NCBI RefSeq assembly: GCF_004010195.1
Contig: NC_057718.1
Span: 100,482,965 to 100,527,245 of the forward strand
DNA: 44,281 nt
Source: Chiloscyllium plagiosum
Taxonomy: Eukaryota
Direction: 5' to 3'
The position numbers and the translations under genes are program-made. Within the stretch, counting starts at the first letter, position 1, and the number at the start of each line of letters is the position of its first letter. Below, piece after piece: positions 381 to 38,910 of this stretch. The notes under the pieces are model-generated. The model was not told the origin of the DNA and ran no database searches. It worked only from the letters and a program-made list of their open reading frames with translations.

Positions 381-535
381 TCATCACCACAGGAAATGAA
401 ATCGCCAACCCAAAGAAACCCAAACATGTAAATAGGAAGCAGGAATTTTCAGCATTGCTTCGCCTGAGGCCCACTGAGGATGTTACCTAGTCTGGAAATG
501 AACTTTCCTGCTCAGCGAGCAAACCTACATCCAAA
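381..535 (+). mobile_element. Penelope-like terminal fragment with an internally deleted hammerhead motif
   Basis: CCA-CTGAGGA-TGTTACC-TAG-TC-TGG at 471-495 parallels the intact motif at 35397-35436, but the 3' half of stem II and GAAAC are missing. Confidence 0.55.
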
Positions 536-546
536 TCACACAATAA

Positions 547-1944
547 ATGATGGTGGCAGTGATGGGATTCACTGCCTGGAGGATTATGGCCGCAGTGATG
601 AGCAAGAAACAGATCTGGATCAGCTGGAAAAGAATTCCAAAAGCCATTTATTCCTGAGACCATTGCTACAGCTTTAAGAATGCTAAGCAACCAGAATAGC
701 CATCACCAGGACACTATAAGTCTCAAAAAGCATTTTCAGGTCAGTAATAAGAGAAACAAGCCATTATAAAGCAAAGAGAGCAGCAAAAGCCCATTGCAGC
801 GAAGGGGAGAATTCTGATGAGCACTCTCAAAAAGAGGATAATTACAGACAGCCAAGACAGATTTGATCCCTTCTGGGAAAGGACAAAACATCTTTTGGTT
901 CCACCTGAAACCTTAGGCCGAAGACCATGCTGGAACTTCTAACTATGAGTTAAGAAATTTATGGATTATTTACTTGACAGCAACAGCGATTTAAGGTAGT
1001 TCTTCAGGTACAGGCTTAGAGAAAATCAATTGGAAAAGAAAATTTGGGAATAAGAACCATATTGCAACTTGAAAGATCAGAGCTCTGACAGTAAAGCTAG
1101 TGAAATCTTTATTTTGATGGTTTAAACGTCAAATTCAAAGTTCCATTCAACAACTGAGGAGTTTTATTGATTTCATTCATTAAAATACAAATGGTTGAAT
1201 GAAGAAAAAGGAGAATCTGATCACATGGTGTCAAATTTGGTGAAAATACCTTGGACACAGAAACAAATTGGCTCAATCATGATAGACATCTTTGATATGG
1301 TCAAAAAGGATCATCTTAACTCATTGACTGAGGCCATTTTGAGAGAGATTCTACCCATGGAATCTTGGGACATCATTCGGCCATCTTGGAAATGGAATAT
1401 CTTCATTCATCGCCATATTTGTGAAGGAAAACCAAACTTTCCATTGAAAGCCACACTTAAAACAGCTAAATAATGTAAACAACGTTCAGTTTTACAACAA
1501 AGACTCAGTAACAACTCTAACCAACTCAGAATGAATGCCACAAAACAGCACCTTATCCTGTCAACATTTCCACTGAAATTATCGACAGTGGGAGTCTGGC
1601 CTCTGTAATGCCTGATACAAGTTTGGGATTGATTATGGAGGGACTGTGGAGGGACTCCAGGCTCCCGCCCAACCACCAAAACAGTTCCTCCATATGGTGA
1701 TCCTGGAAAACCACTTTCATTAAGTCCAGGCTGCGTGCCAATGCTAATGTTTATCCGTTTGGATGGGATGTGCTGCCTTCCAGCACCAGATACAATCTTC
1801 TTGGTGCAAGCCCAGAGAGTGTGTGCTGTCTTTCCAATGTTAGATGGAGTGACGATAAGATGGAAAGTCTGCTTTCAGGTGGTTCCAGTTGGCCCCCATC
1901 ACCCAGTCAAATCATGGACTTGGTATTTTTTTTTAAATAACTGA
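547..1944 (+). pseudogene. Decayed coding-like segment, possibly a retroelement/endogenous-viral envelope remnant
   Basis: Frameshifted + strand peptides: hydrophobic VAVMGFTAWRIMAAVMS, heptad-like TDLDQLEKN / TIATALRMLSNQ / RQIQSSIQQLRSF, then LTEAILREILP, TFPLKLSTVGVW and a Cys-rich part. No firm family recognition. Confidence 0.3.
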
Positions 1945-2002
1945 TTGTTCTGCTTTTGCTCTTTCTCAGATGTGCATTGGTTTCATGCCATGTACAGTAT
2001 GT

Positions 2003-2155
2003 CAGTGCTGGCTCAGTGGGTAGTATTCTCACCTCTGAGTTACAAGGTCAGAGTAAGAATCTAACACAAAAATCAAGACTGACACACCAGTGCAGTAGTG
2101 AGGGAGTGCTGTACAATCGGAGGTGTCCTCTTTCAGACATGCTAAACTGAGGCCC
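2003..2155 (+). mobile_element. DeuSINE-type (SacSINE1-like) SINE fragment
   Basis: tRNA-like head GGCTCAGTGGGTAG plus Deu-domain-like core ctgacacaccagtgcagtagtgagggagtgctg...ggaggtg...aaactgaggccc. Confidence 0.65.
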
Positions 2156-2473
2156 AGTACAGTACTCGGAGTGTCTCTATGACTCTAAGTCCAGATACCA
2201 TGCCCATCAGTGTCTTTCTGATGGAGAAGTGTCCACACTCAGGAAAGATTTACATTTATATCGCGCTTTTCATGATCTCTCGATCACTCTAATCATTTTA
2301 CAGGCAACAAGGCACTTTTGGAAGTGTACCTGCTGTTGTAATATAGGAATCATAGCAGCCAGTTTTGCACACAACAAGGTCCCACAACAGACAATGTAAT
2401 AATGACCACACACCCAGAGTTTAGTGATGGGATAAGCATTATCCAGAGCAGCGTGAATAGCTCTTAGTAATAG

Positions 2474-2625
2474 AGTCATAAAGATGTACAGCATGGAAAC
2501 AGACCCTTCAGTCCAACTTGTCCATGCAACCAAATATCATAAATTAATCCAGTCCCATTTGCCAGCACTTGGCCCACATCCCTCTAAACTCTTCCAATTC
2601 ATATACTCATCCAGATGCCTTTTAA
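2474..2625 (-). mobile_element. CR1-type LINE 3' tail fragment
   Basis: Close match to the tail of the CR1 copy at 19225-19672. Confidence 0.8.
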
Positions 2626-4017: not shown

Positions 4018-4096
4018 TCCATGCAGAGTCTGTTTTAGCCTGAGCTGTGAATGTGCGCACTTGCCATTTACCCGTGCCCGGTTTTGAACCATCCAG

Positions 4097-4882: not shown

Positions 4883-5149
<267 letters not shown>

Positions 5150-6096
5150 TAAACTGCGATTCTTGTCTGCTGCTGAAACGCTTATTAATTTCTCAATCGC
5201 GTTCTTCAATGGACGTTCAAATCCGAGGGCGGTTTGAGTCGAGAATATGCCCGCTTTTGAAAATGGTCCACGTACAAACAGACCGATTCGCGCAAATGAA
5301 TTTCTGGTCGCGAGAAAGACAACAGCTTGCATTTACGTGGCACTTTTCCACGGTAGAGTTGCCATAATCCGAGAGGGCTGCACTATCATTACAGAGAGGG
5401 AGAGAGAGAGAGACACGCCTGGTGGTGGTTTAGATACTTTAGCTCTTATGACACACCTCTAGGGAAGGTGGGACTTGAACCCAGACCTCCTGGTTCGGAC
5501 GTGAGGACACTACAACAGCACCCCCTTAGGCCAGGGGAGAGGTTGAGAGCGACAGTTGTTGACGGTAACCTCGATCAGTAAGGGACTTGGAACCCACACT
5601 GTTGGTGTCACTCTCCATGAGAAACCAACCATCCAGCCAACTGAGCTACCTGTACCTTACAAAGGTTTGAAAAGACTCTGCTCCCGCTGCCTTTTGAGAG
5701 TGTTCTCAACTCTCCTAACCCTCTGTGAGAAGAAATGTCTCCTTAGCTCGGTTTTGAGTGGGCAACCCTTTATTTATCAACAAGGTTCCTGAATTCTAAA
5801 ATAACCCTCAAAACACATCCTTTTTTTAAATTCATACGTGGGATATGGATGTCGTTGGCTGGGCCTGTATTTATTGCCCATCCCCAATTCCCTTTGAGAA
5901 GTTAGTAGTGAGCTTCCTTCCTGAGCTGCCACAATCCTTGGGCTGTAGGGACACCCATGATGCTGTGAGAAAGGGTATTGCAGGATTTTGACCCAGCAAC
6001 ATTGGAGATATAGTGGTTTAACTCCAAGGTGGATGACTTGTGCAGTGATAGAGTCATTTAGCACAGAAACAGATCCTTTGGCCCAACGCAACTGCC

Positions 6097-6375
6097 ATGG
6101 TGGCTCAGTGGTTAGCACTGCTGCCTCACAGCACCAGAGTCCCAGGTTCGATTCCAGCCTTGGGCGACTGTCTGTGTGGAGTTTGCACATTCTCCCCGTG
6201 TCTGCGTGGGTTTCCTCTGGTTTCCTCCCACAGTCCAAAGATGTGCAGGTCAGGTGAATTGGCCATGCAAAATTGCCCATAGTGTTAGGGAAATGGGTCT
6301 GGGTGGGTTAGTCTTCAGAGGGTCAGTGTGGACTTGTTGGGCTGAAGGGCCTGTTTCCACACTGTAAGGAATCTA
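6097..6375 (+). mobile_element. HE1-type SINE inserted in a CR1 tail (CR1 about 6050-6632, minus strand)
   Basis: A box TGGCTCAGTGG and B box GGTTCGATTCC. The CR1 tail ...ggcccaac resumes at catccatgctgacc after the SINE. Confidence 0.88.
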
Positions 6376-9385: not shown

Positions 9386-9807
9386 GTGTTAAAGGGATAT
9401 TTTGGGCAAAACCTGAGGTAGATTTTAAGGAATGTCTCAAAGGAGCTGTGCTCTTCCAGCACCACTAATCCAGAATCTGGTTTCCAGCATCTGCAGTCAT
9501 TTTTTTACCTCAAAGGAGGAGAGGTTTCGGGAGAGAATTTCACAGGTTAGGATTCAGTCGGCTGGAGCAGGCCTGTGACTGGTGGTACAATTAAAATTGA
9601 GGATTCGTGTCAAGCCAAAACTGTGGGTGTGCAGATATCTGAGAAGGATGTAGGCCTGGCTGAGGTTGCAGAGATAAGGAGGGACTTGCTAATTGGACAT
9701 TTTACCCATAGTGCTTCTCCATGCAGAGAAAGAGCTATCATTAGATGAATGTATAGCTTGCTTGTTACCATGGGAACCTTGTTATACTCACGAATGCCTG
9801 TTAAATC

Positions 9808-10132
9808 ATAGGATCCCTAGAATGTGGAAATAGGCCATTTGGCCCAACAAGTCCATACCGACCCTCCAAAGAGTAACCCACCCAGACCCATTCCCCCTAC
9901 CCTATTATCTCACATTTACCCCGACTAATGCCCATAACCTACACATCCCTGGACACTGTGCGTAATTTAGCACGGTCAATGCACCCTAACCTCCGCACCT
10001 TTGGACTGAGGGAGGAAACGGGAGCACCCGGAGGAAACCCACGCAGACACAAGGAGAACATGCAGCCTTCACACCGGCAGTCGCCTGAGCCTGTGGGCTA
10101 GCTGTGCTAACCACTGAGTCACCCTGCTGCCA
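9808..10132 (-). mobile_element. HE1-type SINE
   Basis: Homologous to 3705-4017. Confidence 0.85.
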
Positions 10133-10439
10133 TTAACCTAGCAGCTTCCATGCCTTCTTCACTCTAAAGCAGTCTAAGGCGGCAGGGTGACTTGAAGATT
10201 GCAGGGAATGGCTGGGAGGAAGCTAAATGTACGGATGACAGCAATGTGAGACTCAAGCAAGATGGGAGGAGAGAGAGAGACAATGTCACACACTTCTGGG
10301 TTCAGCTGCCATTAGCATTCTCAAGCAACAAGGTGGGAGTACTGCCATGTGGTCTGGTGAAGATCTCAAAAAGATTCATTGACCATTGGAAACATTTTCT
10401 CAGGATCTACCCAATTGGTCTCAGAGTCTTGTAGGTTTT

Positions 10440-10746
10440 GATTAGATTAGTTTCCCTACAATTGGGAAACAGGCCCTTCGGCCCAACAAGTCCACAACGA
10501 CCCTCTGAAGAGCAACCCACCGAGACCCATTCCCCTACTCCCTGCTAATGCACCTATCACTATGGGCAATTTAGCATGGCCAATTCACCTGGCCTGCACA
10601 TCTTTGGATTCTGGGAGGGAGGAAACCCACGCAGACACAGGGAGAATATGCAAAAACCACACAGACAATCACCCGAGGTGGAAATCGAACCGAGGTCCCT
10701 AGTGCTGTGAGGCAGCAATGCTGACTACTGAGCCACCATGCCACCC
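10440..10746 (-). mobile_element. HE1-type SINE with (ATTAG)n-type tail
   Basis: Homologous to the other copies; gattagattag tail. Confidence 0.87.
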
Positions 10747-11397
10747 CTTTTAATGAGTTTTAGTGAGGTTACCTCACATTCTTCTAAACTGTGAAGAAAA
10801 TAGGCCTCATTTACTCAACTGCTCATCATCTGATAAACTCCTCATTGCAGGGACCAGATTTGGGAACCTTCACTATACCATCTCTGATACAAGTATATTT
10901 CCTTTAAATTATAACATAAAGAATTCATGTTAATATGTGTATCATCATGGGATGTGATTTAAGATCACTTAACTACTGTGAGATTGTTCTCTCTACAAGC
11001 TTTGTTTGAAGACTTGTCCAGTTCATAGTTGGTTATTATCTGTTAATAAAAGATTATGTTTGCCAATGGTAACCAAATCTGTCCCACTTTGGGACACAAC
11101 AACATTAGAACAGAATGTAATCAAATCCTACTGTCTGCTTCTCCACTCAAACCTCACCTTTTCACCAATTATGAGTTAATTCTCATCCGTGGTTTTAACG
11201 AAAAGTATTGGAAGAACATCAGTTACCTCCCAGAGGGGAAAGTGCATTGGCACATTGTGTCTGTTATACTGCACTCTGCTGAATTTGCAGGTTTCCATGG
11301 AATGTACCTTCTGCCAAGCTTTGGGTCTTTACTGTAGCAAATGAATATGGAAACCAGAACTCAATGGCTCGTTGATCTAGGGGTATGATTTTCACTT

Positions 11398-11706
11398 GGG
11401 GCGGCACGGTGGCTCAGTGGTTAGCGTTGCTGCCTCACCGCGCCAGGGACCCAGTTTCGATTCCACCCATGGGCAACTGTCTGTGTGGATTGTATGTTCT
11501 CTCCGTATCTGCGTGGGTTTCCTCCTACAGTCCGAAGATGTGCAAGTTAGGTGCTAAATTGCCCTGGAGTATCCAGGGATGTAGAGGCTGGGTAGATTAG
11601 CCTAGGGGAAATGCAGGGTTATAGGGTGGGTCTGGGTAGGATGCTGTTTCAATGCTTGGTGTGGACCCAATGGGCTGAATGGCCTGCCTCCACACTGTAG
11701 GGATTC
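11398..11706 (+). mobile_element. HE1-type SINE
   Basis: GGGCGGCACGGTGGCTCAGTGGTTAGC...CACACTGTAGGGATTC. Confidence 0.88.
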
Positions 11707-12540
11707 TTTAATTGATTCTGTGAAATGCACACACAATTGAAGATGTAATCTCACCAAGACTGTGTATGATTATCGCAACACTTCTTCATACCTGGATTTC
11801 AATCCCTTCACAATAAAGGTCTGTCTGAGAGGCTGACTCAGTAGGAGCAAGCTTTAATTAGAGTCAGCTCCACACATGCTCAATACCAATGCCAAATAAA
11901 ATATTGCCTCCAGTGGCCAGAGCTATCTCTTATAACGCTTTAATTTCCCAAACCCCCTCATACGAACAAAGTTGTCAGGACACATTACAGAGCGAGTCCA
12001 TTGAATTCTGATCCTCTCTCACAGTGTGACAGAAATGTTCATTGTTTCTCCAAAGCATCTTCTACTCCCAATCCGTCTGGGAGGGCGGCTTGCTGACATT
12101 GAGCGTCTGCCCTCAGGGATAAGGTGAAGCGTAGTTGAGGTGCATCGTATGCCAACAAGGTAAAATGAAACCACATGTCCACAATTAGTCTGTGGACTTG
12201 CATAACCTGACAAATTATTTCCTTACTCTTTCCAGTCTGGAATCCACTGGTTCCTCATTCCTCAGTCCCTGTCAGTCACCACCAACCACTCTGCCCCTCA
12301 GTGCAGGCTGACCCTTCATTTTGGGAAAGCCACAATTATCCAAATCAGTGTCATGGATGGGGGCTATTCTTCCCTCTGTCTCTGGTCACGTTTAGTTGCA
12401 GGACAAGATTTCAGTCTGCCTGGTAGTTATTAAAGGCAGTCACTTCCAACATGCCATGTTTTTTTCCCTGGGGTCGGGGAGTCCAGAACTAGAGGGCATA
12501 GGTTTAGGGTGAGAGGGGAAAGATATAAAAGAGACTATCT

Positions 12541-12978
12541 GTTTGGAGTTTGCACATTCTCCCCGTGTCTGTGTGGGTGTTAAGGGGCATACCGTGATTA
12601 GTTAGAAGTGATGAAGATTTTGGAATGTTACTCATATCCTCTGTAGTGAAGACTGATATAAAATACCTAGCCAATTCCCTATTTCCCATTATCAATTCTC
12701 TTGTCTCATTTTCTATAGAACCAATATTCATCTTGTTAATGGTTTTCTTCGTAAAAAGAAGAAGCTCTTACCATTTTGTCTTTCTGGCTAGCTGTCCCTC
12801 TAATTTTCCTTCTTTTTTTGTCATCCTTTGCTGTTTTATATAATTTTCTTAAACTGCTACCTGTCTTTGCACAATTTTTTTTTTCTGTTAGTTTGATAAA
12901 ATCTTCATCACTTCTAACTAATCACGGTATGCCCCTTAAAACCCACACAGACACGGGGAGAATGTGCAAACTCCACAC
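12541..12978. repeat. About 80-bp inverted repeat (12541-12620 / 12898-12978) around a decayed LINE fragment
   Basis: ...tggagtttgcacattctccccgtgtctgtgtgggtgttaaggggcataccgtgattagttagaagtgatgaagatttt is a near-perfect reverse complement of aaaatcttcatcacttctaactaatcacggtatgccccttaaaacccacacagacacggggagaatgtgcaaactcca. Confidence 0.92.
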
Positions 12979-12984
12979 ACACAG

Positions 12985-13280
12985 CCAGCATTTATTGCCC
13001 ATCCCTAATTGCCTAGAGGGCAGTTAAGAGTTAACCACGTTGCTGTGGGTCTGGAGTCACATGTAGGTCAGGATGGCAGTTTCTTTTCCAAGAGAAGATT
13101 ATTGATCCAGATTGAATTTTCCTCGACAATTGCCAATGGCTTAATGGTTATCATTAGACACTTAACTCCAGATTTTCACTGAATCAAATTCCATCATCCG
13201 TTGTGGTGGGATTCGAACCCAGGTCCTCAGATTGTTGGATTAACAGTCCAGTGATAATACCACTAGGCTAACACCTCCAT
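12985..13280 (-). mobile_element. Second SINE family (tail ...AATTAGGGATGGGCAATAAATGCTGG); related copies at about 21838-22140 (+), 23550-23895 (+) and 38245-38960 (-)
   Basis: Shared B-box GGTTCGAATCCC and shared body gtgactccagacccacagcaatgtggttgactcttaactgccc. Confidence 0.75.
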
Positions 13281-13446
13281 TTAAAGAAGTCATAACGGGG
13301 CACTTGGATAAATTCAAGATAATCAGGAAGAGCCACATGGTTTTGTGAAAGGGAAACCATACTCGACCAATCTAACATTGCTTTTTGAGATGGCAACACA
13401 TGTTACAGATAAAGGGAAACCGGTGAAAATGTTTTACTTAGATTTC

Positions 13447-13722
13447 TAGAAGCATAGAATCCCTACGTGTGGAAAGTGGCCATTCAGCTCATCATGTCTG
13501 CACTGCCCTCCAAAGACCATCCCACCCAGACCTTCATCCTTTCCTTGTAATCCCATATTTCCTATGGCCAATCCACTTAACTTACACATCTTTGGACTGT
13601 GGGAGGAAACCCAAACAGACACAGGGAGAGCTGTCAGAGACACAGACAGTCACCCAAGGCTAGAATCGAACCCAGGTCCCTGGTGATGTGAATCAGCAGT
13701 GCTGGCCACTTGGCCACTGTGC
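13447..13722 (-). mobile_element. HE1-type SINE inserted into an old CR1 RT fragment (about 13280-14000, +)
   Basis: SINE homology; the flanks read like QHGFVKGK...LTNL...YLDF / KAF. Confidence 0.8.
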
Positions 13723-15229
13723 TATCCAGGTGTTTAGTAATACCTGATAGTATTTAATAAGGCACCCATCAATGCTTATTACAGAAAATAAAAGCTAATG
13801 ATATAACAGGTAGCATATTGGCATGATTATTTTTAAGGCGGTGGAAATAAATTCTTGTTAAGAAAAGGGTAAAAGGTTATCGGGGTAGGCATTGAGGTTA
13901 CAGATAGATCAGATATGATCTTATTACATGGCAGAATAGGCTTGAGGAGTGAATGGACTACTGCCCCTGAGTTGCATATTTGTTTGATCACAAATTACTT
14001 GCATTTCATTGTAAATTTCAATACTATCTTCTGCTGCTGTTATCTTACTGAAGGGTGGAGCTGGAACATGGGGCCGAATGGCCTGTTGCTATTCCTTACA
14101 TCCTTATTGTCCATTGTGTTTCTAAGACCTTGATCTATGATGCCACAGAATGAACAGATTTGAATAAATGATTAAGATTCCAAAGTGATTTTCTACTGGT
14201 TGTGATGCCTTACATTGGTCAACGTATAAATTAGTTATTCCTGATGGATTAGGGTCTGTTGGATGATTACCTCTGCCATGAGTAAACATTGGGCAGGCAT
14301 GTTGCCCATCATTTTGTGTCATTCGGAATCAATGATTCGAAAATTAGAGTCTTATTTTTTGACATACCATAGGGGCATGTCACATTTCTCCCATTGCAGG
14401 GAACTGAGCAAGGTTTAACCTTAATACCTGCCCCCTCCCCTTAATTCCCCTGACTGAAAGCTGAGTTTCAAAAGCATAACCTTGCAGGAGGAGCCAACAG
14501 CAAGTCTTATATTTTGGAGCAGGGCAGATTTCAATTTCCATCACCAGATACATAATACACACCTCCGACTCAGTGATTTAACTTGAGTTCTCCTTGAAGG
14601 ACTTTGCAACTAATTACTAAGCAACCTCTTTTATACTCTACCAATTAAAGTTTCTGTAAGAAGTTCAAAGCAAAACTCTCGCAGCCAAGTCATTATTACG
14701 ACTTTGAAAGCATGTATGAGTTACTAATTTTCTTCTCATAGAAACTGAGGAACATTTTAAGCTGTTCATGGCATTTAAATGCTAAATTACAGATAGTTGA
14801 TGCAATTTTTACATCTGACATTGGAATCTTCTTTCTATTACAGCTGCCCTCAATACAGTATATGGCTTCCCAGCAGAAAACTATTACATAGATACCAGCT
14901 TTTCAACGCATCAGCTATACCAATGCAAATAGTAAAATATTAGCAAACTTACTTAAATCTCTAATTATAATTATACAGCATTACTAATGATCATTGTATA
15001 ATGGACATATTTGTAGATATCTTGTACTAAAAGGTGCAGCCCACACTGTACCTTACACGACGCTGCTCATTAAACCTCGAATGTCATATTATAACTTCCA
15101 AATCCACCCTGATTGAATGTGGATATTTTTCAGAAGCTATTGGAAAATAAACATTAGTGGGGATTGCTTTAAATATTAAAATGTTTTAATCTTCAATTAC
15201 TGACTTGTGAAAGGGTTATTTAATTAAGT

Positions 15230-15406
15230 TTAGATCAGAGTGGTGCTGGAAAAGCAGAGCAGGTCAGGCAGCATCTGAGGAGCAAGAAAATCGATGTTTC
15301 GGGCCAAAGCCCTTCATCAGGAATTCCTGATGCTGCCTGACCTGCTGTGCTTTTCCAGCACCACTCTAAACTCTGCTTTCCAGCATCTGCAGTCCTCACT
15401 TCTGCC
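15230..15406. mobile_element. Palindromic PLE-derived element (family A) with hammerhead core on the minus strand (15291-15321)
   Basis: Arms agtggtgctggaaaagcagagcaggtcaggcagcatc / gatgctgcctgacctgctgtgcttttccagcaccact. Minus strand CTGATGA-A-GGGC-TTTG-GCCC-GAAAC-ATC. TSD TTATTTAATTAAGT at 15216-15229 and 15407-15420. Confidence 0.8.
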
Positions 15407-15532
15407 TTATTTAATTAAGTGTCCAACCCAAACAGTAAGCAGTCTCAGCTGCACAATAACACTCTTGCCTCTCAGCTGTGGCATTAGCCTCACCTCTGAG
15501 ATGTGAGTACACATATCCAGACTGAAGCCCAG

Positions 15533-15998
15533 CATAGAACATTGAACATAGAACAGTACAGCATGTCTGTGCTGACTATGATGCCATTCTAAACTAATCC
15601 TATCTGCCTGCACATGGTGCATGTACTTCTCTTCCCTGCTGGTTCATGTATCTGTCTAAATGCCGCTTAAAGAATGATCACATCTGCTTCTACCACCTCC
15701 CCAGGCACCTCCCACCCTCTGTGTGAAAAGCTTGCTTCGCACATCTCCTTTAAACTTGTCCCCTCTCACCTTAAACACATGCACCCTTGTATTTAATATT
15801 ACCACCCAGGGGTAAAGACTGACTGTCCATATAATCCATGTCTCTCATAATTGATCAGGTTGCCCCTCAGCCTCTGACACCCTAGTGAAAACAATCCAAG
15901 TTTTTCCAACCTCTCATTGTAATTAATACACTCCAATCAGGCAATGTTCTGATAAACCTCTTTTGCAACCTCTTCAAAGCGTCCACATTCTTCCTAAA
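15533..15998 (-). mobile_element. CR1 LINE 3' fragment (continues at about 16608-16685)
   Basis: (CATAGAA)n-type tail and CR1 3' ORF2 similarity. Confidence 0.75.
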
Positions 15999-15999
15999 T

Positions 16000-16590
16000 T
16001 GATTTATTTACTGTCACTTGTACCAAAGCACAGTGAAAAGCTTTGTTTATGAGCAGTACAGGCAGGTCATAGTAAGCAAGGATGTACAGATCAAAAGATC
16101 TAGACAAAGCCATTCAGGTAACATTGGACAGATGTACAAAGAGATCAACGTTAGCATGATCAGCATGATTTGAAGTTAGAGAGTTCATTCATCAGTCTAA
16201 TAACAGCGGGGAAGAAGCCGTTCTCGAACCTGTTGGTGCGTGTGTTCAATCGTCTATAGCTTCTGCCTGACAGAAGAGGTTGTAGGAGATCATTACCAGG
16301 GTGCAATGGGTCTTTGATGCTGTTGGCAGCCTTTCTGTGGCAGTGAGCTGTGTAAATGGAGTCCATGGATGGGAGGTTGGCTCCCGTGATGGTCTGGGCT
16401 GTGCACACCACCCTCTGTAGTTTCTTATAATCCTGGGCAGAATAGTTGCCGTACCTGGCCGTTATACACCCAGGCAGTATGGGTTCAATGGTGCATCTGT
16501 AGAAGTGGGTGAGGGTCCTTATGGAAATGCTGAATTTCCTGAGCCGCTTGAGGAAGGAGAGGCGTTGTGCCTTCTTGACCAACATGGGAA
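16000..16590 (-). mobile_element. Rex1/Babar-like LINE 3' end (DUF1891-type RT C-terminus)
   Basis: ORF 16160-16585: KKAQRLSFLKRLRKF...LTHFYRCTIEPILPGCIT.RYGN...KKLQRVV.TA..ITG...LLSGRSYR...RTNRFENGFFP.VIRLMN. Confidence 0.8.
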
Positions 16591-18770: not shown

Positions 18771-18909
18771 GTATGTTTACTGATGATGCAAAAGTAGGTA
18801 GGAAAGCAACTTGTTAAAGGGAGTCAAAGTGTTAGGAAAGGGATGTAAATATGGTGAGTCGGCAAATAATTACCAGATGAAGTATAATGTGCAGAAATGT
18901 GAATTAATG

Positions 18910-20485: not shown

Positions 20486-20650
20486 ATTAATGCACTTTGG
20501 TAGAAAGAGTAGAAAAGAACTTAATTATTTAAGTTTTTGATGGACTGTAGAGAACAGCATTTGGATATCTTCATGCATGAAATACAAAAAGTTAGAACAT
20601 CGATGCAGCAAGTAATTAAGAAGGTGAATGAACATTGGCCTTTATTGCAA

Positions 20651-20918
20651 AATGTGAAGGTGCCGGTGTTGGTCTGGGGTGGACAAGGTCAGATGTCACA
20701 CGACACCAGGTTATATTCCTGATGAAGAGCTTATGCCCGAAACGTCGACTCTCCTACTCTTTGGATGCTGCCTGACCTGCTGTGCTTTTCCAGCTCCGCA
20801 CTTCTGTGACACCAGGTCATAGGCCAACAGATTTATTTGAAAACACAAGGTTTTGGAGCAGTGCTTGTGATTTCAAATAAACCTGTTGGACCGTAATCTA
20901 GTGTCGTGTGACTTCTGA
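20651..20918. mobile_element. Palindromic PLE-derived element (family C) containing a nested family-A fragment
   Basis: Arms gtcacacgacaccaggttat / taatctagtgtcgtgtgac; approximate flanking duplication ctttatt(g/a)caa. Confidence 0.65.
20716..20750 (+). ncRNA. Minimal hammerhead ribozyme motif (family A), sense to ISM1 intron
   Basis: TTC-CTGATGA-A-GAGC-TTAT-GCCC-GAAAC-GTC-GA: intact core and GUC triplet, with one A.C mismatch in stem II. Confidence 0.6.
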
Positions 20919-21610: not shown

Positions 21611-21700
21611 GAATTGAAGATACTTTCAAGACTGCAGCCACAGAGATGAGTCTAATGGCTGGAGGTGAAGATATAAATGCCACTGAGTTATTTGGACTAG
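21611..21700 (+). CDS. ISM1: Isthmin-1 linker exon (90 nt, phase 1 to 1)
   Basis: Polypyrimidine tract then ttccAAG|GA; donor CTA G|GTaggt. Encodes (G)[29 protein letters not shown], similar to ISM1 GIEDTFRTAATEVSLLAG...NAT.LF. Phase is compatible with both neighbouring exons. Confidence 0.93.
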
Positions 21701-23029: not shown

Positions 23030-23465
23030 AGAAACGATTTCGCAGGATGTTGTTGGGACTAGAGCGTTTGAGATATAAAATAGACTGAAATGACTGGGAG
23101 CCTTTTCACTGGAGTATACGAGGTTTATAAAATCACGAGCGACATAAATAAGGTGAATGGCGAGAGTCTTTTCGCTTAAGTGGGGTGTTCAAAACTAGGG
23201 GACATATTTTTAAGATGAGAGGAGAAAGATTTGAGAAGTACATGAGGGGTGAAATTTTTACATACAAAGTGGTTCATGTGTGGAATGAACTGCCAGAGGA
23301 AGTGGTGGATGCAGGCACCGTTATAACGTTTAAAAGACATTTGGATAAGTACGTGAATAAGAAAGATTTGGAAGGATATGGGCCAAATGCAGGCAGGTGG
23401 GACTAGTTTAGTTTGGAAACATGGCTAGAGTGGACTGGTAAGACCTAATGGTCTGTTTCTGTGTT
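23030..23465 (+). mobile_element. CR1 LINE 3' end
   Basis: ORF 23185-23406 KTRGH.FK.RGERF...VVHVWNELPEEVVDAGT...FKRHLD. Confidence 0.85.
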
Positions 23466-24081
23466 GTTTGTGGGACACTTCCTACGCAAGACCTTCAGAT
23501 GCAGAGACGTGGCAATAAGAGCAGGAATAGGCCATTTGGCCCATCATGGGAAGGCAGTGTGGAGTGGTATAATCACAGGCCTGGTAATCCAGAAGCCTAG
23601 ACTACATTCTGGGAACATGGATTTGAACACCCAACATGGCAGATGGTGAATTCCATAAATATCTGTCATTAAATGCTACTCTAATAGTGACCACGTAGTC
23701 ACTACTGATTATTGCTTAAAAACTCGTCTGGTTTACTAATGTCCTTTGGGGAAGGAAATCTGCCATCCTTACCTGGTCTGACCTACATGTGACTCCAAAA
23801 CATCTGCAATGTGGTAGATCTTTAACTTCCTTCTGAACAATTGGGAATGGATAATAAATCCTGTTCTAGGTAACAATATGCACGCTCCATGAACAAAGAA
23901 CAGTTCCTACCCTGTGATTCAAACAGAGTTGGTTGACTATCTTACCTATACACTATATTTCACCATTATCCCCAGATCCCATGATATCATCATTATGCAT
24001 GAAACTGACAACTTCTGTCTTGAATATGCCCAATGCCTGAGCTTCCAGAGCCTTCCTCAGGGCAGAGAATTCCAAAGATTC

Positions 24082-24280
24082 AAAGTTAAAAATCACACAA
24101 CACCAGGCTATAGTTCAACAGGTTTATTTGGAAGTGCTAGCTGTCTTACGATCTTATACTCCACAACCACCTGATGAAGGAGCAGTGCTAGTGTTTCCAA
24201 ATAAACCTGTAGGACTATAACCTGGTGTTGTGTGATTTTTAACTTTGTACACCCCAGTCCAACACCAGCATCTCCAAATC
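24082..24280. mobile_element. Palindromic PLE-derived element (family C) with a partly deleted hammerhead
   Basis: Arms aaagttaaaaatcacacaacaccagg / cctggtgttgtgtgatttttaacttt. CAC-CTGATGA-AGGAGCAGTGCTAGTG lacks the GAAA segment. Confidence 0.75.
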
Positions 24281-25343: not shown

Positions 25344-25907
<564 letters not shown>

Positions 25908-28609: not shown

Positions 28610-28712
28610 ATTCTGAACAGGGACCACTGGACTCGAAACGTTAGCTCTGTTTCTCTGTTCACAGATGCTGCCAGACCCGCTGAGCTTCTCCAGCACTTTC
28701 TGTTTCTGTCTC
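28610..28712 (+). mobile_element. PLE-derived fragment (family B) with a degenerate hammerhead
   Basis: ttCTGAACAgggaccactggactcGAAACGTTagctctg...gatgctgccagacc, homologous to 31762-31855. Confidence 0.6.
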
Positions 28713-29196
28713 AATGACAATTGGACTGGTTAGGTTCTTTGTAGGTATCTGGGTAATCTTTCACATTGACCACTTGATGCCAAAGACAAAGTTGGACTGT
28801 AATGGCCTGGTTATGGGAGCTGCTTGCTCCAGGTCACTGACCTTCAACACTATGATTTGGACTCTATAGTCATCTTTATCCTTTATGAGGAAAATATACT
28901 TCCTCACATGAAGCAAACCAGATTGTAAGCAACTGGTGTCATGTACATCACCTCAAATCAGGGACATGAGTAACCAAGTTAATCCATTTCCTCAGGTGTT
29001 GCTGTTGGGAGAACTCCCAGTTGCTCATTTATGTTTATAGACCTAGGCAGAAACCGACAGGGCAGGTAGACTTGGTTAAATGCCTTTCCTGGAGGAATCA
29101 CATCTCTGACAATCTAGCACAGGTTCAGGGTTACAGATAGAATACGAGTTGAAGCTTCAGTGTGGGGTTTGAGCCCAACAACATGTCAATGTTTAG

Positions 29197-29535
29197 GTAG
29201 CACAGTGGCTCAGAGGTTAGCACTGCTGCCTCACAGCACCAAGGACACAGGTTTAATTCTACCCTCAGGTGTCTGAGAGGAGATTACATGTTTTCCCTGT
29301 GTCTGCGTCGGTTTCTACCAGGCACTCCAGTTTCTCCCTACAGTCCAAAGGTGTGTAGGTTCAGGTGGATTGGCTATGCTAAATTGCCCATAGTGTCCAA
29401 GGTTGAGTAGGTTAGGTTGTCAAGCCATGGAAAATGCAGAGTTACAGGGATGGGGTAGTGGGATGGGGTGCTTTTGGAGGGGCTCTGTGGACTCAATAGG
29501 TAAATGGCGTGCCCCCACACTGAAAGGATTCTATG
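29197..29535 (+). mobile_element. HE1-type SINE
   Basis: gcacagtggctcagaggttagcactgctgcctcacagc homology. Confidence 0.82.
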
Positions 29536-30823: not shown

Positions 30824-31652
30824 ATTTGAAGCTTAGGAAAAGTCCCGGAAAGCTGGAAAGGCAGCGGATGTGGGTGGGGCACAGTCTATGTATCAGACTG
30901 AGAGAAGCAAACATAGAAGAATTTCCCATACAGCTAAAATGTTGTGTTTGGTTCTGAGGGCTCACTGTACTCCCAGGCATTGCTTGTCAGTTGAGATGGA
31001 GGGTGAAGGCAGCCCACAAGCGATATTTGCTTGGTGCAGGTGAGAAACGTTGGAGCTGGAAGAAACCTAAGGGCATTGCCAGCTTAGTGAAGCTAGCTGT
31101 CTGCGAAAGAGCTGGAAATGTGGCAAACATGGGTTGGAATACTTCAGAAATTGAGTGAAACATAAGACCCTGGGGAAGAGATTTAACAGGCATTCAGACA
31201 GTCTGTCATAGAGCAGCTTTGAGAGAATTTCAATGCTGTTTCTCTGACAGTGAAGAATTGGAATCCAAGTGAAGAAGACAAGGTTTTAAGGAGATATGGT
31301 GACCTACAAATCATGCACATCAGGGTGGAATGCTGAGTGGTCTATGGCATGTGTCCTGACCACATCAATTTGATGTAATCTGTGGAGCTTCCAACCACAG
31401 TTAGTCTGTTGATTCATATTTACCTCCTTGTTAATGCTGAAAATTAAAATATAAGCTGCATATATATTGTACATTATTTAAATGATTTAACCTTGTATAG
31501 TAAAGTTAACTTTGTTTTCAAAAATCTTGTAGATTTATTGTCTAAGTCCCTGGGACATCAAATTTTGTGCACTTTTGACAAAAAAAGGTTACTAGTCCCC
31601 AGTCAGTCTGTCACCTAATTTGGTGGTCTCATCTAGGACCATAAGATAATTT

Positions 31653-31860
31653 ATAAAAACTGAAAGAACTACAGATGCTGTAAATTTGAGACAAAAATAG
31701 ACATTACTGGAAAAGCCCAGCAAGTCTGGCAGCATCTGTGGCAAGAAATCAGAGACCGGTAGTTCTGAGGAAGGGTCATTTGGCCTGAAAAGTTAACTCT
31801 GATTTCTCTTTACAGATGCTGCCAGATCTGCTGAGTTTTTCCAGCAATTTAATTTTTTGT
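31653..31860. mobile_element. Palindromic PLE-derived element (family B) with hammerhead core at 31765-31790 (+)
   Basis: CTGAGGA-AGGGTC-ATTT-GGCCT-GAAA; arms ctggaaaagcccagcaagtctggcagcatctgt / acagatgctgccagatctgctgagtttttccag. TSD CCATAA(G/A)ATAATTT at 31639-31652 and 31861-31874. Confidence 0.75.
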
Positions 31861-31873
31861 CCATAAAATAATT

Positions 31874-31891
31874 TGGGGGTTTGTCTGGGAT
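31874..31891 (+). promoter_or_regulatory. Primer-binding site complementary to the tRNA-Pro 3' end (decayed)
   Basis: TGGGGGTTTGTCTGGGAT vs canonical TGGGGGCTCGTCCGGGAT: 15/18 match, all three differences C>T, two at CpG. Confidence 0.7.
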
Positions 31892-32025
31892 CTGAAATCT
31901 ACAGAAAAATATGAGTCTTGGGATTTGTGGAGGTTAAAGCTGACAATAAATTTACAGTGTAGTACTTGTTGAGGATCAAAATAAATTTGCCAGTTGCTAT
32001 GACTGATCCCTCAGCAATTGACTAA

Positions 32026-32150
32026 ATGAAGGGCTTCTGCCCGAAATGTCGATTTTCCTGGTCCTCGCATGCTGCCTGACCTGCTATGTTTTTCCAGCAC
32101 CACTCTAACCTTGACTCTAATCTCCAGCATCTGCAGTCCTTACTTTTGCC
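32026..32150 (+). mobile_element. 5'-truncated PLE-derived family-A fragment
   Basis: atgaagggcttctgcccgaaatgtcgatttt...gctgcctgacctgct...ccagcaccact. Confidence 0.7.
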
Positions 32151-32419
32151 TAAATTTTACCAAGGCTGGGTTAATAACATTCTCAGGAAAGTTGGAGTTA
32201 TAGCAATAACTAGAGCTGAGAAAGTTTACATTATTGAAGAGTTAATGTGATGGAATTTCGAGCTTGAAGAAGGAAAAGTTAAACCAGATAACAATTCAGT
32301 GGATTTGGCAAGAGTTCAATCACAAATGAAGTGGCTTGAGATAGAGAAAGAAAGAAACAAAGGAGTTGTAGACAATAAGAGGTAGAGAAAAGCAAAAGGT
32401 AGATCAAAAAAAAGATCTA

Positions 32420-33200
32420 CCCTTCGGTCTAACCCTTCCATGCCGACCAGATATCCCAACCCAATCTCGTCCCATCTGCCAGTACCCGGCCCATATCCCT
32501 CCAAACCCTTCCTATTCATATACCCATCCAAATGCCTTTTAAATGTTGCAATTCTACCAGCCTCCACCACTGCCTCTGGCAGCTCATTCCATACACGTGC
32601 CACCCTCTGCATGAAAAAGTTGCCCCTTGGGTCTCTTTTATATCTTTCCCCTCTCAATTCTGGAATATTGTGTGCAATTCTGGCCTCCTTTCTATCGGAA
32701 AGATGTTGTGAAACTTAAAAGGGTTCAGAAAAGATTTACAAGGATGTTGCCAGGGTTGGAAGATTTGAGCTATAGGGAGAGGTTGAATAGGCTTGGGCAG
32801 TTTTCCCTGGAGCGTCGGAGGCTGAGGGGTGACCTTAAAGAGGTGTATAAAATCATGAGAGGCATGGATAGGATAAATAGACAATGCCTTTTCCCTGGGG
32901 TGAGGGAGTCCAGAACTATAGGGCATTGGTTTAGGGTGAGGGGGGAAAGATAAAAAAGGGACCTAAGGGACAACGTTTTCATACAGAGGGTGGTGCATGA
33001 ATGGAACGACCTGCCAGAGGAAGTGATGGAGGCTGGTACAATTGCAGCATTTAAAAGGCATCTGGATGGGTATATGAATAGGAAGGGCTTTGAGGGATAT
33101 GGTCCAAGGGCTGGCAAATGGGACATTGGAGGTTAGGATATCTGGTTGGCATGGACAAGTTGGACGAAGGGTCTGTTTTCATGCTGTACATCTCTATGAC
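32420..33200. mobile_element. Two young CR1 3' ends joined in opposite orientation (32420-32655 minus; 32656-33200 plus)
   Basis: ORFs 32316-32657 (-) and 32627-32953 (+) carry CR1 C-terminal motifs; the tails are reverse complements. Confidence 0.88.
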
Positions 33201-33204
33201 TAAG

Positions 33205-34340: not shown

Positions 34341-35115
34341 ATTGGTTAGAGGCAGTTAAAGCATAAGTTGCTAACTTTGGTTGTTGTTCACTCAATGGGC
34401 AAAGAGGCAGTGAGCAGGAAAGGGTCTGTTGTTAGCGGTTTCCAGGCAGTCAGGGCTTGGGATAAGATCTGAGGAGTGGTGAGGCACTAGACGATTACTG
34501 GCTTTCTCAGAGAGGGGGAGCAGTCAGATATAGTGTCTCAATTTAACTAAAGAGCTGTGATTGGTTCTGAATAGCTGTATTGAACTGAATTCCCAGGGTC
34601 AATCAAGAGTGAAGAAAGCCTGCAAGTGGCATTTGCTTGGTGCACGCAAGAAATATTGCGGCTCTAGAAGAAACACAGGAACTGTGTCAGCTTAGTGAAG
34701 TCAGCTGCCTGTGAAAAAAAACCCCGTTGGAATTCGAGGTGCTGGAGTGTACCCTTGTGAATCCAGCGGAACACAGTCTCAGGGAAAGAAATTGAACTTT
34801 GCGCAGTCATTGAGGCAGTCCTTGTCAGGTTATGTATTCAAAAGTGAAGAATTGAATCCCACATGATGGAGGTAAAAGTTTTGAAGGTGATTTGGTGATC
34901 CCCATCATTTCACATCTGAATGGGTTACTGAGAAATTTAAGGGATCTACCATGACAGCATTTGCTATTTGATGTGATTTGTGGGAAATTCAACCATAGTT
35001 TGTCTGTTACCTTTTATTTGCCTCATGTTAGTTCTGAGATTCAAAGTTTGGGAGAAGATTTGTAGCTCGGGTGCTCGTTGTTGTGGTTCTGTTCACCGAG
35101 CTGGGAATTTGTGTT

Positions 35116-35155
35116 GCAGACGTTTCGTCCCCTGTCTAGGTGACATCCTCAGTGC
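35116..35155 (-). ncRNA. Minimal type I hammerhead ribozyme motif, intact (antisense twin)
   Basis: Reverse complement GCA-CTGAGGA-T-GTCACCTAGACAGGGGAC-GAAAC-GTC-TGC. Confidence 0.8.
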
Positions 35156-35396
35156 TTGGGAGCCTCCTGTGAAGCGCTTCTGTGATGTTTCCTCCAACAT
35201 TTATAATGGTTTGAATCGAGCGAATTCCTAGAGGCATGGCACTCATCCACAGATTCAATCAATAAGCACATCGACCTGGACCCAATATACCGACCACTGC
35301 AACGGGCAGTTGGAACTGACAACCGGAAGCGGCAGATTCAAACCACTACAAATGCCGGAGGAAAGATCACAGAAGCGCTTCACAGGAGGCTCCCAA

Positions 35397-35436
35397 GCAC
35401 TGAGGATGTCACCCAGACAGGGGACGAAACGTCTGC
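35397..35436 (+). ncRNA. Minimal type I hammerhead ribozyme motif, intact; predicted cleavage after 35433
   Basis: GCA-CTGAGGA-T-GTCACCCAGACAGGGGAC-GAAAC-GTC-TGC: stem I GCA/UGC, stem II GUC.CC/GG.GAC, palindromic ACGU in place of stem III, GUC triplet. Confidence 0.8.
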
Positions 35437-36947
35437 AACACAAATTCCCAGCTTAGTTCTGAGAGTTAAAATATTATTTTACACCCACACATATATACAT
35501 ATCAAATAGATATTATATGTTGAAACAGAGAAAAAGATTGTTTTACTTTGCTAGCCTTGTATTATTTATTGTAATTATTCAAAACTCTGGAATCCTATGG
35601 TTTTATTCTCTTAGTGGGTACCTGGGATTCCAGGTTAAGTTACTTTTAAACTAAAAGGAATGGCTGAACCCTAACCAGATCATAATTTAGCAGTCTCATC
35701 TGAAATCATAACACCAATAAAGAAGGATTTGTCCCTCACAACAATATTATCTTCTTGTATCGAATAATTGAATAATTTATTTCTATGCACATTTGTGTTT
35801 AGTAACAAATTCAGCAAGTATTAGCATTTCCAACACTGGTTTATCTCAGCATCAAAATCTCAAGTCAGTTCTTACGTGTGAGAGTGGAATTTCTTCCACA
35901 GTTAAACCGCATGTGTTCCCTCATTAAAGTCTTACTTCAATGTAATGTCATTGCTCCCAAAAGAGATTTGAACTTTGGTGATGTATTTGTTTGAGGGGCC
36001 CAAAGCTGATAGTAATTTATTAAGTTGGCTGCCCTCAACAGCTCAAGGGTAGTGGCGCGTACTTCAGGAAATGGTTCGCCATAATTCCAAAGATATTTAT
36101 TTAACTGTCAATGTTAATTAGGTGGCTCTGCAGAACCTGGTAAACATGTACAACCTTACGAGCAACTCCAGCGTCTGTGCTGGATTCCAACAATAAATGC
36201 ATTATTTCCTTTTTCGCTGTGGCATTACTGGGATTTTTTTTTTTTAACGTTTTCACAGCCGGGTGACTAGTTCAGAAAGTTAGTGCAGTTTCTTGCTCCG
36301 TATCAGAGCTTGAGACTGAAATTTCATAAGGCCATCCAAATGTTTCCTTTGCTTCGTAACACCATGAGGCTCAGATTTCCTGAGGCCCAAAGTACTGTGT
36401 GTCAAAGTTGTTGGGAGATCTAAAATCACTGCACAAGATTAATCAGAAAGATTTTATACCTTGTAGACTCTCGTATTTAAAAATGATTTGTTTTTAAAAG
36501 GTAACCAACTTAAAATCGATGGCAAAAATCATAATCACAAATTTTAGTTCAGGGATGTTTCTTTGATTTGAACATGTAAATGTTTAAATCAAGTTTGAAG
36601 ATATAAACTTACATCAGACCAACAGTTTTGGAATTAACAGATTTTTCTATGTTCATCTGTTCCTTTGTTCAGTTGTTCCTTCTCACATGTTTAGGTATAT
36701 TCTAGAGCAAATAAATAATTTCCTAGGTGCAATGATAGTGTCCCTGCCTCTGGACCAGAGGCACCAGTTCAAGTCTCACTTGCTTCAAAGGTGTGTCATA
36801 AAATCTCTGAACAGGTTGTTTAGAAACTATCTGGATTGTTTCCTGCCACAAGATTTACAGCTATGACGTTATTTGAAGTAAACTCCATGTTTACTACATC
36901 TCTCTCAGTCCAGTAATTTTTTTCACAACTCTCTGCAGCTGTAGATG

Positions 36948-37157
36948 TGGAGATGCCGGTGATCAACGGGTGGACAAAATCAAAAGTCTCACAGCACCAG
37001 GTTATAGTCTAACAGCTTTATTTAAAATCACAAGCCTTCGGAGCGCTGCTCCTTTGTCAGATGAAGTCTTCTCCTGATGAAGGAGCAGTACGTCAAAAGC
37101 TTGTGATTTTAAATAAATCTGTTGGACTATATCCTGGTGTCATGTGACTCCTGACTT
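36948..37157. mobile_element. Palindromic PLE-derived element (family C) with two mutated hammerhead cores
   Basis: Arms caccaggttatagtc...aaaatcacaagc / gcttgtgatttt...gactatatcctggtg. CTGATGA-AGGAGC at 37074; flanking repeat tgtagatg. Confidence 0.72.
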
Positions 37158-37979
37158 TGTAGATGAGCACGTAGGATTCTCAAAAAAACTGAAGTTTAGT
37201 TGAGAAGAATCCAAACGTGCTGTCTCCCTGTTGGGTTCAAAATTATATGATTTTTGATGGAGTTTTGTGAAAAATAATTGAGAAATAGGTGTGTGTGTGG
37301 CATGGGGAATTGTATTTATACTTACATTTTAAAACTGGTCAAATGATGAAATACAGGTATGCATTGTGAGAATAGGGATTGAATGTGGTCTTATATCTGA
37401 CTAAATATTTAGAAGGTTAATGTATACACATCTGTACTTTGACCTTTGAACAGCAATTGCGTTACATGTAGAAAAAACTTGCTGGCTTTCAACATATTCA
37501 TATAAGACTGGAAGCCAGTTTGCAATTATCTTGTTATAGCAGCTGTAGGGTTCTTTTCCCCCTCCAAACTGTTTCCACCCTGAATATTTTGTCTTCTTCA
37601 GATGACGTGAGGGTGATTAGCGTTGGGGAATAGCCATAAGTACACCCGGCAAGTTCAATTTAACAATGTACCGTAAAAGGCTCACTATGGTGCCACAGGG
37701 ACGCTGAAGGGAACTGACCAATGCCTCACAGAACTCAAAGCATCATCCTTTGATCAATCAGTAGCACACTAATCTCAAAAGTCATGAGGAATCTGCAATC
37801 AAATTCCATTCCATGCTTAAATTTAAAAATTGAGGCTGACACTCCAGTGCTGCTGTGTTGAATGTCACTAAATGGAGGCATCATTTAGGCCTACTTGAGT
37901 GAATTGTAAAAGGTGCAATGGTTCTATGTCAATCAAGAGCAGAGGAGGTCTCCTTGATTGCCCAACCAATATTTATTAT

Positions 37980-38150
37980 GTTAAAAATCACACAACACCA
38001 GGTTATAGTCCAACAGGTTTAATTGGAAGCACACTAGCTTTCGGACCGAAAGCTAGTGTGCTTCCAATTAAACCTCTTGGACTATAACCTGGTGTTGTGT
38101 GATTTTTAACTTTGTACACCCCAGTCCAACACCGGCATCTCTGAATCATG
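37980..38150. mobile_element. Near-perfect hairpin PLE-derived element (family C) inserted in a DeuSINE-like repeat (about 37760-38220)
   Basis: 65-bp arms 37980-38044 and 38046-38110 with one mismatch and a 1-nt spacer. TSD AATATTTATTATGT at 37968-37981 and 38151-38164. Confidence 0.88.
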
Positions 38151-38462
38151 AATATTTATTATGTAACAGCACCAAAACTGAGTATCATGCCATTGATTGT
38201 AGGAACTCGTGTGTGTAATTTTAAAAAAATGCATCCATGCGAAGTGGGTGGTGCTGGGCCAGCATTAATTGTTCTACCTTGATTGTCCAGAGAATAGTTA
38301 AGAGTCAACCACATTGCTTTGCGTCTGCAGTCACATATAGGACAGACCTAGCAACAATTTCCTTCCCTACAGGACATCAGTAAATCAGATACGTTTAGGC
38401 AGTAATCGACAATGGCTTCATGGTCATCATGAAATCCCAAGTCCAGAGTGATTTTTATCGAA

Positions 38463-38676
38463 GGAGGAAAAAGTGAGCACTGCAGATGCTGGAGATCACA
38501 GTCAAGAATGTGGTGCTGGAAAAGCACAGCAGGTCAGGCAGCATCTGAAGAGCAGGAGAATTGATGTTTCAGGCATAAGCCCTTCATCAGGAACCTGATT
38601 CCTGGTGAAGGGCTTATGCCCAAAACATTAATTCTTCTGTTCCTCAGATGCTGCCTGACCTGCTGGGCTTCCCCCC
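38463..38676. mobile_element. Palindromic PLE-derived element (family A) with hammerhead cores on both arms
   Basis: Minus strand CTGATGA-AGGGC-TTAT-GCCT-GAAAC-ATC (38561-38591); the plus copy is mutated (CTGGTGA...AAAA). TSD TGATTTTTAT(C/T)GAA at 38449-38462 and 38677-38690. Confidence 0.8.
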
Positions 38677-38764
38677 TGATTTTTATTGAATTCACATTCC
38701 ACCCTATGCCATGGTAGGATTTAAATCTGGATCACCAGAACATTACCTGTGTCTGTGGATTATT

Positions 38765-38910
38765 AACAAAAACAGAAATTGCTGGAGAAACTCAGCAGGT
38801 CTGGCAGCATTTGTGGAGTGAGAAACAGAGTTAACATTTCAAATCCAGTAACCCTTCTTCAGAACTTGAGCAATTTCTGTTTTTATTTCAGATTTCTAGC
38901 ATTCACAGTT
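38765..38910. mobile_element. PLE-derived family-B element with a degenerate hammerhead on the minus strand (38829-38864)
   Basis: Minus strand TTCTGAAGA-AGGGTT-ACTG-GATTT-GAAAT-GTTAAC; arms aaaaacagaaattgct / agcaatttctgttttt. Confidence 0.68.

Follow-up and report, generated by a model that had tools for sequence, protein, structure and literature searches.

What are the short, hammerhead-bearing repeats that are scattered over a 44,281-nt stretch of the genome of the shark Chiloscyllium plagiosum (hereafter, the window), and how did they get there? The initial annotation of this stretch, made from the letters alone, assigned 14 coordinates to four families (A to D) of short palindromic insertions with a shared hammerhead ribozyme core, and proposed that these were either truncated ends of Penelope-like elements (PLEs) or non-autonomous, retrozyme-like elements. 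We addressed this question by combining the analysis of the window with the alignment of four public sequencing runs to positions 34900-38950, protein searches and comparison with published work. The insertions are very probably short, 5'-truncated terminal repeats (pLTRs) of endonuclease-bearing (EN+) PLEs and represent at least three lineages (A/B, C and D) along with a D-like element at position 474. This origin, the first of the two proposed, is favored because the family D repeat is contiguous with an open reading frame (ORF) that encompasses a reverse transcriptase (RT) along with a GIY-YIG domain at the C-terminal end, and because the target site duplications, an empty site, the inversion of the copies and their one-sided tails match published PLE insertions.

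The inner part of the D insertion translates into a protein end that is 80-89% identical to five Chiloscyllium proteins, one of which contains an RT; the closest named proteins come from Chiloscyllium punctatum. In four of the five proteins, the C-terminal residues extend to the hammerhead CUGAGGA, and, as seen from the loose end at 35222, the ORF is carried further upstream by other genomic copies of D. The protein P0003 contains an RT with YVDD, followed by a VVY..CxxC..YIG motif; its match to Pfam RVT_1 (E=3e-6) is below the curated cut-off, its C-terminal end resembles GIY-YIG clusters (0.93-0.94), and its relatives number 30,281 at E<=0.001. This motif pattern would make D a Penelope/Poseidon-type element. 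Searches of P0001, P0003 and P0004 against Pfam and NCBIfam gave no passing GIY-YIG match, a Pfam search of the D fragment yielded no family, and a tblastn comparison of 153 proteins with the window detected PLE-type ORF sequence only at 35222-35452. In the database, two Chiloscyllium host genes, one for a 5'-nucleotidase domain protein and the other MAP3K7, have isoforms (P0002 and P0005) with ends that consist of family D ORF sequence, suggesting that PLE ends are read through or exonised in gene models.

All 14 coordinates of the initial annotation fall within repeats of the families to which they had been assigned but correspond to 13 insertions, with those at 35116 and 35400 being the two arms of a single one; an additional stub, at 9446-9508, had been missed. 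The resulting 14 insertions (Table 1) add up to 2,456 nt, or 5.5% of the window. An inverted arm is present in nine of these (43-118 nt at 80-98% identity in eight cases and 19 nt in one), and the remaining five consist of a single arm (474, 9446, 20719, 28613 and 32026); the palindromic structure attributed to the repeats is accordingly found in nine of the originally recognized 13, the exceptions being all members of this list other than 9446. The division into four families also stands in part: C and D are separate, whereas A and B, which in the alignment have the 3' body and the tail in common, are one lineage, and the similarity between the element at 474 and the 35-kb D element is limited to 19 nt, the former being a distinct D-like family. 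The family A copy 20719 is nested within the family C element 20855 and has a duplication of its own, so that this A event is younger than that C event.

Direct repeats of 8-15 nt flank 10 of the 14 insertions, each at p<=0.019 in comparison with 2,965 random intervals, values that are optimistic because the element boundaries were set after the candidate repeats had been spotted by eye; the mean AT content is 0.72, compared with 0.57 for the window. Two empty sites, one orthologous and one paralogous, provide evidence that is independent of these p-values. In organism B (run X10), the flanks of which are about 2-3% diverged from the window, one 867-nt contig joins 37967 to 38151, the 38040 hairpin is absent and one copy of the duplication is left. 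Thus, the element entered either as a polymorphism or after the two organisms had split, and at that time it already had the hairpin form and lacked the catalytic core. The paralogous case is a relative of the repeat that hosts 38561: at 21838-21959, the duplicated stretch is present once. For 24171, which has no clear duplication, paralogues of the surrounding repeat run continuously across the insertion site. The 38561 and 38829 insertions apparently lie at most 90 nt apart in one copy of another repeat (38350-38950), and the paralogue at 21838-21959 aligned only across the site of 38561.

The hairpins themselves share one asymmetry and differ in their centres. In all nine, the tail is one-sided, with an overhang of 30-60 nt on one side and of 0-10 nt on the other. 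The centres differ among all four C hairpins and among all four A/B hairpins, and additional centres are seen in other genomic copies (joints 38011>38086, 38542>38641 and 38593>38637, among the best supported rows of the read alignment, from which some joints and loose ends were dropped). The variation of the centres implies that the hairpin is built anew at each insertion and is not copied as a fixed unit, so the identical breakpoints expected of a short hairpin spreading autonomously are not seen. C and D elements reach upstream of their cores by varying lengths.

Table 1. Insertions and associated features in the window
Feature	Position	Strand	Details
Single-arm PLE end 474	367..531	+	CUGAGGA at 474; stem II (3' half) and core GAAA missing; duplication of 13 nt, 354-366 / 532-544
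Coreless A-type stub with tail, missed in the initial annotation	9446..9508	+	10-nt duplication 9436-9445 / 9509-9518
Family A head-to-head insertion 15291	15230..15406	core on minus	C3 at 15320; post-GAAA palindrome broken at CpG; tail right; duplication 15216-15229 / 15407-15420
Family C head-to-head insertion 20855	20655..20918		No CUGANGA; tail left; duplication 20640-20654 / 20919-20933; split by nested A copy
Family A single arm 20719, nested in C element	20716..20807	+	Full core letters, one stem II mismatch; duplication 20702-20715 / 20808-20821
Family C head-to-head insertion 24171, inside another repeat	24082..24280		CUGAUGA at 24171; stem II (3' half) and GAAA lost in a 9-nt deletion; tail right; no clear duplication
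Family B single arm	28611..28714	+	CUGANGA decayed, post-GAAA ACGU retained; no significant duplication
Family B head-to-head insertion	31653..31860	core on plus	Core (31765) in hairpin loop; tail left; duplication 31639-31652 / 31861-31874
Family A single arm with tail, 32026	32028..32145	+	Starts inside core, CUGA absent; candidate duplication, weak (p=0.058), 32018-32027 / 32146-32155
Family D head-to-head insertion	35040..35452	cores on both	Intact minimal hammerhead cores 35152 minus and 35400 plus; arms 95% alike; 60-nt left overhang; duplication 35028-35039 / 35453-35464
PLE ORF C-terminal end (end of GIY-YIG domain)	35222..35416	+	In database relatives, last codons overlap CUGAGGA
Family C head-to-head insertion	36948..37157	cores on both	Decayed cores 37060 minus and 37074 plus; tail left; duplication 36940-36947 / 37158-37165
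Young family C hairpin 38040	37982..38150		Arms 98% alike, both starting inside stem II, hence no CUGANGA; tail right; duplication 37968-37981 / 38151-38164
Family A head-to-head insertion 38561, inside another repeat	38463..38676	cores on both	Decayed cores 38590 minus and 38602 plus; duplication 38449-38462 / 38677-38690
Family B insertion 38829	38766..38917	core on minus	Core at 38862; G-U wobbles in stems II and III; inverted tail-bearing arm 38865-38916; no significant duplication
Isthmin last coding exon (AMOP domain)	25344..25907	+	Earlier exon candidates near 4091 and 5024-5140 (thrombospondin-type)

The shared hammerhead core is a property of the families and not of most copies. At the family level, a minimal type I hammerhead is intact in D, near-intact in A (20719, with every core letter retained), complete in C solely in copies from elsewhere in the genome (402 contigs of run X3 with a loose end at 38032 and 394 reads of run X21 with one at 38045, which continue through stem II and CUGAUGA) and recognizable in B by alignment. 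Most copies in the window are broken: CUGANGA is missing in 20855, 38040 and 32026, the second half of stem II together with GAAA is deleted in 474 and 24171, and most of the other cores have point changes at core positions, many of them at CpG sites. A strict descriptor (CUGANGA, an optional extra base, stem II of at least three pairs, GAAA, a palindromic pair, UH and stem I of at least two pairs) gave two matches, 35152 minus and 35400 plus, both in D arms, the average over 200 dinucleotide shuffles being 0.005; with the loose pattern CUGANGA..GAAA, there were 12 matches (shuffle mean 3.9, maximum 11), eight inside elements, the two strict ones included, and four outside. The post-GAAA palindrome is ACGU in A, B and D and AGCU in C, so that the switch described at the outset is real, but the covariation read into it is suggestive only: in an alignment of 12 A/B arms, 82.8% of the stem I/II cells are paired, above all slid registers (8-58%), and one stem I pair switches from C-G to U-A (three arms versus three), while 126-486 of 500 shuffles reach the observed values. 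No family of hammerheads reached E<=1 in an Rfam search of the window, and the microRNA hits, which lay below the gathering scores, are explained by the hairpin shape. The GAAA at 495-498 was rejected as the core of 474, having neither a stem II nor a palindrome.

When single cores were folded, their z values relative to shuffles ranged from -1.7 to +1.1, with no core standing out clearly in stability, as expected because the motif needs a dimer. The complete D insertion is predicted to fold at -252 kcal/mol (z = -22), with both strict cores paired over within their own hairpin, and forcing the hammerhead stems costs 76 kcal/mol. In the head-to-head layout, transcription of either strand produces the antisense arm first, and this arm would pair over the core, so that symmetric hairpins are unlikely to self-cleave. 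In the three asymmetric hairpins (15291, 31765 and 38829), the cores are located in the loop and are not paired over, and the predicted fold retains stem II in two of the three; these cores are decayed and lack a stem III partner. Taken together, the modeled folds indicate that the copies in the window are probably not working ribozymes. Among the read ends of run X21 (a poly(A) single-cell run, about 2% of which was read), the only pile is at 38629 (17 molecules) and none is at a predicted cleavage site, in a type of library that cannot reveal cleavage.

The most likely mechanism accommodates these features in a single scenario. The PLE protein with RT and GIY-YIG domains would cut both strands of AT-rich DNA 8-15 nt apart, a step attested here by the duplications and the empty site. 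Reverse transcription would then start in the terminal repeat of the RNA at one of two sites 30-60 nt apart, giving rise to a long, tailed end and a short end; the one-sided tail is seen throughout, and the two start sites, demonstrated in vitro for a lizard PLE, are presumed for the shark. Copying would halt early, often at or inside the hammerhead hairpin, positions that are directly observed and that presumably reflect such halting. A second, inverted copy would be made in the same event and joined head to head, either through priming from the second nicked strand or through fold-back of the first cDNA. The minimal hammerhead would belong to the parent element, where it is thought to act as a dimer; in the stubs, it would be a decaying passenger.

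Several observations weigh against the truncated-PLE origin. No ORF link was found for A/B, C or 474 in the collection scans and protein search (neither the viral nor the metagenome contigs contained an exact match to a 31-nt family A stretch, and a search with a 44-aa A-frame protein returned five candidates, none at E<=1); the PLE identity of these elements is thus read from the motif, the tail, the duplication and the inversion. Four of the 14 insertions (24171, 28613, 32026 and 38829) have no significant duplication, and the window contains no direct (tandem) pLTR, which would be expected only for long copies. The optimistic duplication p-values, the covariation that does not exceed the shuffles, and the loop-located cores, two of them with stem II, count on the same side. 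Finally, all eight A/B arms that reach stem II start at -4, -4, -3, -4, +5, -2, -4 and -4 relative to C3, a clustering that plain random truncation does not predict.

This clustering could mean that A/B is a dedicated non-autonomous retroelement of about 95-130 nt, its RNA beginning with the first base of stem I, with a PLE protein acting in trans to mobilise it and the inversion still arising at each insertion, an explanation that we consider unlikely. It would fit the narrow range of the starts, mostly with the duplication or the opposite arm directly upstream, and an illustrative geometric model yields 8e-5 to 6e-10 for mean extensions of 30-150 nt, which are assumed, not fitted. The agreement of RNA reads past 38593 is 0.48, like that at true element ends (0.36-0.47) and unlike that in C continuations (0.81-0.91), although variable upstream sequence could also give low agreement. 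However, a strong RT stop at the hammerhead hairpin would yield the same pattern; in four additional A/B arms, the start lies downstream of the core; the C and D elements reach past their cores in the upstream direction; and the clustered start is located upstream of the core, away from the cleavage site. Somewhat better placed, but still tentative, is the possibility that A/B spreads as a hammerhead-headed RNA of about 130 nt, with the 5' end set at the first base of stem I either by the transcription start or by the folded ribozyme blocking the RT.

The other origin proposed in the initial annotation, a retrozyme-like one, appears highly improbable. Non-LTR retrozymes are short units that would spread via circular RNA produced from two tandem hammerheads, and the insertions resemble them in being short, ORF-less, hammerhead-bearing (type I in both cases) and very abundant; moreover, a pLTR ancestry has been proposed for retrozymes (Cervera and De la Pena 2020, PMC7229834; Li et al. 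10.64898/2026.07.22.740005), and the Li et al. preprint, which traces animal retrozymes back to pLTRs, reports their occurrence in one cartilaginous fish. Published retrozymes are head-to-tail tandem units with mostly canonical motifs that are expressed as circles, whereas the copies in the window include neither head-to-tail units nor canonical motifs: no core is part of a tandem array (eight TRF rows, none on an element), the cores are on opposite strands or solo, the motifs are minimal, and the hairpin centres vary between copies. Furthermore, the one-sided tails and the 8-15 nt duplications indicate PLE integration, and D carries ORF sequence. Equally improbable are miniature inverted-repeat transposable elements (MITEs) with a centre that is hammerhead-like by descent or by chance. 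Hairpins of 155-415 nt with flanking duplications are what such elements would look like, but the ends are asymmetric in nine of nine cases, the duplication length varies between 8 and 15 nt, five insertions are single arms and the centres vary, and for D this explanation is refuted by the RT-linked ORF end. On the asymmetric ends, the variable duplication length and the absence of tandem units, we reject both readings; in particular, the repeats lack the symmetric terminal inverted repeats of DNA transposons.

Truncated PLE ends thus remain the preferred identity, and elements of this kind have been described previously (Cervera and De la Pena 2014, PMC4209133); the shark families are probably members of it. 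In that paper, minimal hammerheads are reported in pLTRs of metazoan PLEs, with weak cleavage and only as dimers, mostly as solo motifs from truncated PLEs, with some opposite-strand pairs 100-700 bp apart and thousands of motifs in coelacanth and Xenopus. The shark motifs are similar in lacking stem III and in having the palindromic 15.2-16.2 pair, an extra base after A9, before stem II, and a G-C pair at the start of stem II; in both cases, a genome contains several consensus families. The density in the shark is higher (14 insertions in 44 kb), and the portions of the paper and the supplement files that were searched contained no entry for a shark or Callorhinchus. With insertions of EN+ PLEs, as described by Arkhipova et al. 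2013 (PMC3846280) and Craig et al. 2021 (PMC8557442), the shark copies share the head-to-head inversion, palindromic junctions, a one-sided tail (30-40 bp there), duplications (8-10 bp there and 8-15 in the shark), the occurrence of some insertions without a duplication and the use of an empty site as proof. They differ in that the main copy is reduced to 60-240 nt, making the entire insertion a small hairpin, and in the absence of partial tandems from the window.

The protein of the lizard PLE PAc (Anolis carolinensis Poseidon) cuts and extends both strands at AT-rich sites in vitro, with two RT start sites that bound the tail, according to Frangieh et al. 2024 (PMC11167929). D resembles PAc in the combination of RT with a C-terminal GIY-YIG domain, in a hammerhead that overlaps an ORF end and in AT-rich targets, and the cutting and extension of both strands would fit the two arms of the shark hairpins. 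The hammerhead of PAc overlaps the ORF start, whereas that of D overlaps the last codons, the region checked in D being the ORF end. The inversion and the 5' stops are not explained in the covered portions of that paper, and how inverted copies and tails of PLEs form is, according to PMC8557442 and PMC11167929, still open. The literature searched contained no description of these shark families; Repbase, Dfam and the cartilaginous-fish family lists of the Li et al. preprint were outside that search.

The copy number of these repeats is very high. From two DNA runs, 216,094 and 224,886 contigs align to the 4-kb stretch, the summed depth exceeding that of unique flanks by a factor of thousands to several hundred thousand; summed contig depth does not equal copy number and was not used as a count. 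The large genomic reservoir that had been postulated thus stands with respect to copies; as a reservoir of ribozymes it is a weak claim, the copies being mostly dead in this capacity and the two strict cores both zipped into their hairpin. In run X21, 6,470 of 12.96 million records aligned and 98% of these continue into unlike sequence, pointing to other copies as the origin of the reads. At 38003 and 38006 (left arm of the family C hairpin, minus strand), 456 and 359 reads (815 in all) have poly(T) loose ends, which are located 12-15 nt past the AATAAA/ATTAAA of family C, where there is no genomic A-run; family C copies therefore supply poly(A) sites, as judged from reads that come from many copies and are not specific to this locus. 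The strand bias of the RNA reads fits element-sense RNA for C and D, is weak for A and absent for B.

The host gene in this part of the genome is isthmin, and given the positions of its exons and exon candidates (Table 1), the five PLE insertions at 9446-24280, among them the near-intact sense-strand core 20719, lie in its introns. Other repeats in the window include an inverted LINE-type 3' end at 32419-33124, with 188-nt arms at 86% identity, which we take to be CR1-like; an 87-nt inverted pair (95%) in a SINE-like repeat at 12535-12984; a long LINE reverse transcriptase fragment in two frames on the minus strand at 42816-44239 (Pfam RVT_1, E=3e-23), with many shorter 3'-end copies across the window; and several copies, on both strands, of a tRNA-like SINE family, presumably of the HE1 type (6093-6277, 11405-11574, 29201-29470 and 39466-39652). 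A match to Pfam ALKBH8_N (DUF1891-like) at 16160-16630 on the minus strand is probably the end of another retroelement ORF.

Making up about 5% of the window, forming long RNA hairpins in introns and, in family C, providing poly(A) sites, these insertions matter for the annotation of shark genomes. With numerous short insertions bounded by duplications, of several ages and some of them polymorphic between close species, breakpoint counts can serve as a test of how the inversion and the tail of PLEs form. The most promising lead is the 5' boundary of A/B at the front edge of the ribozyme. If A/B indeed spreads as a hammerhead-headed RNA of about 130 nt, the hammerhead would be a structural boundary for PLE copying, beyond its role in cutting, and the very many mini-insertions of this shark would constitute a natural map of the starts, stops and strand switches of PLE reverse transcription.

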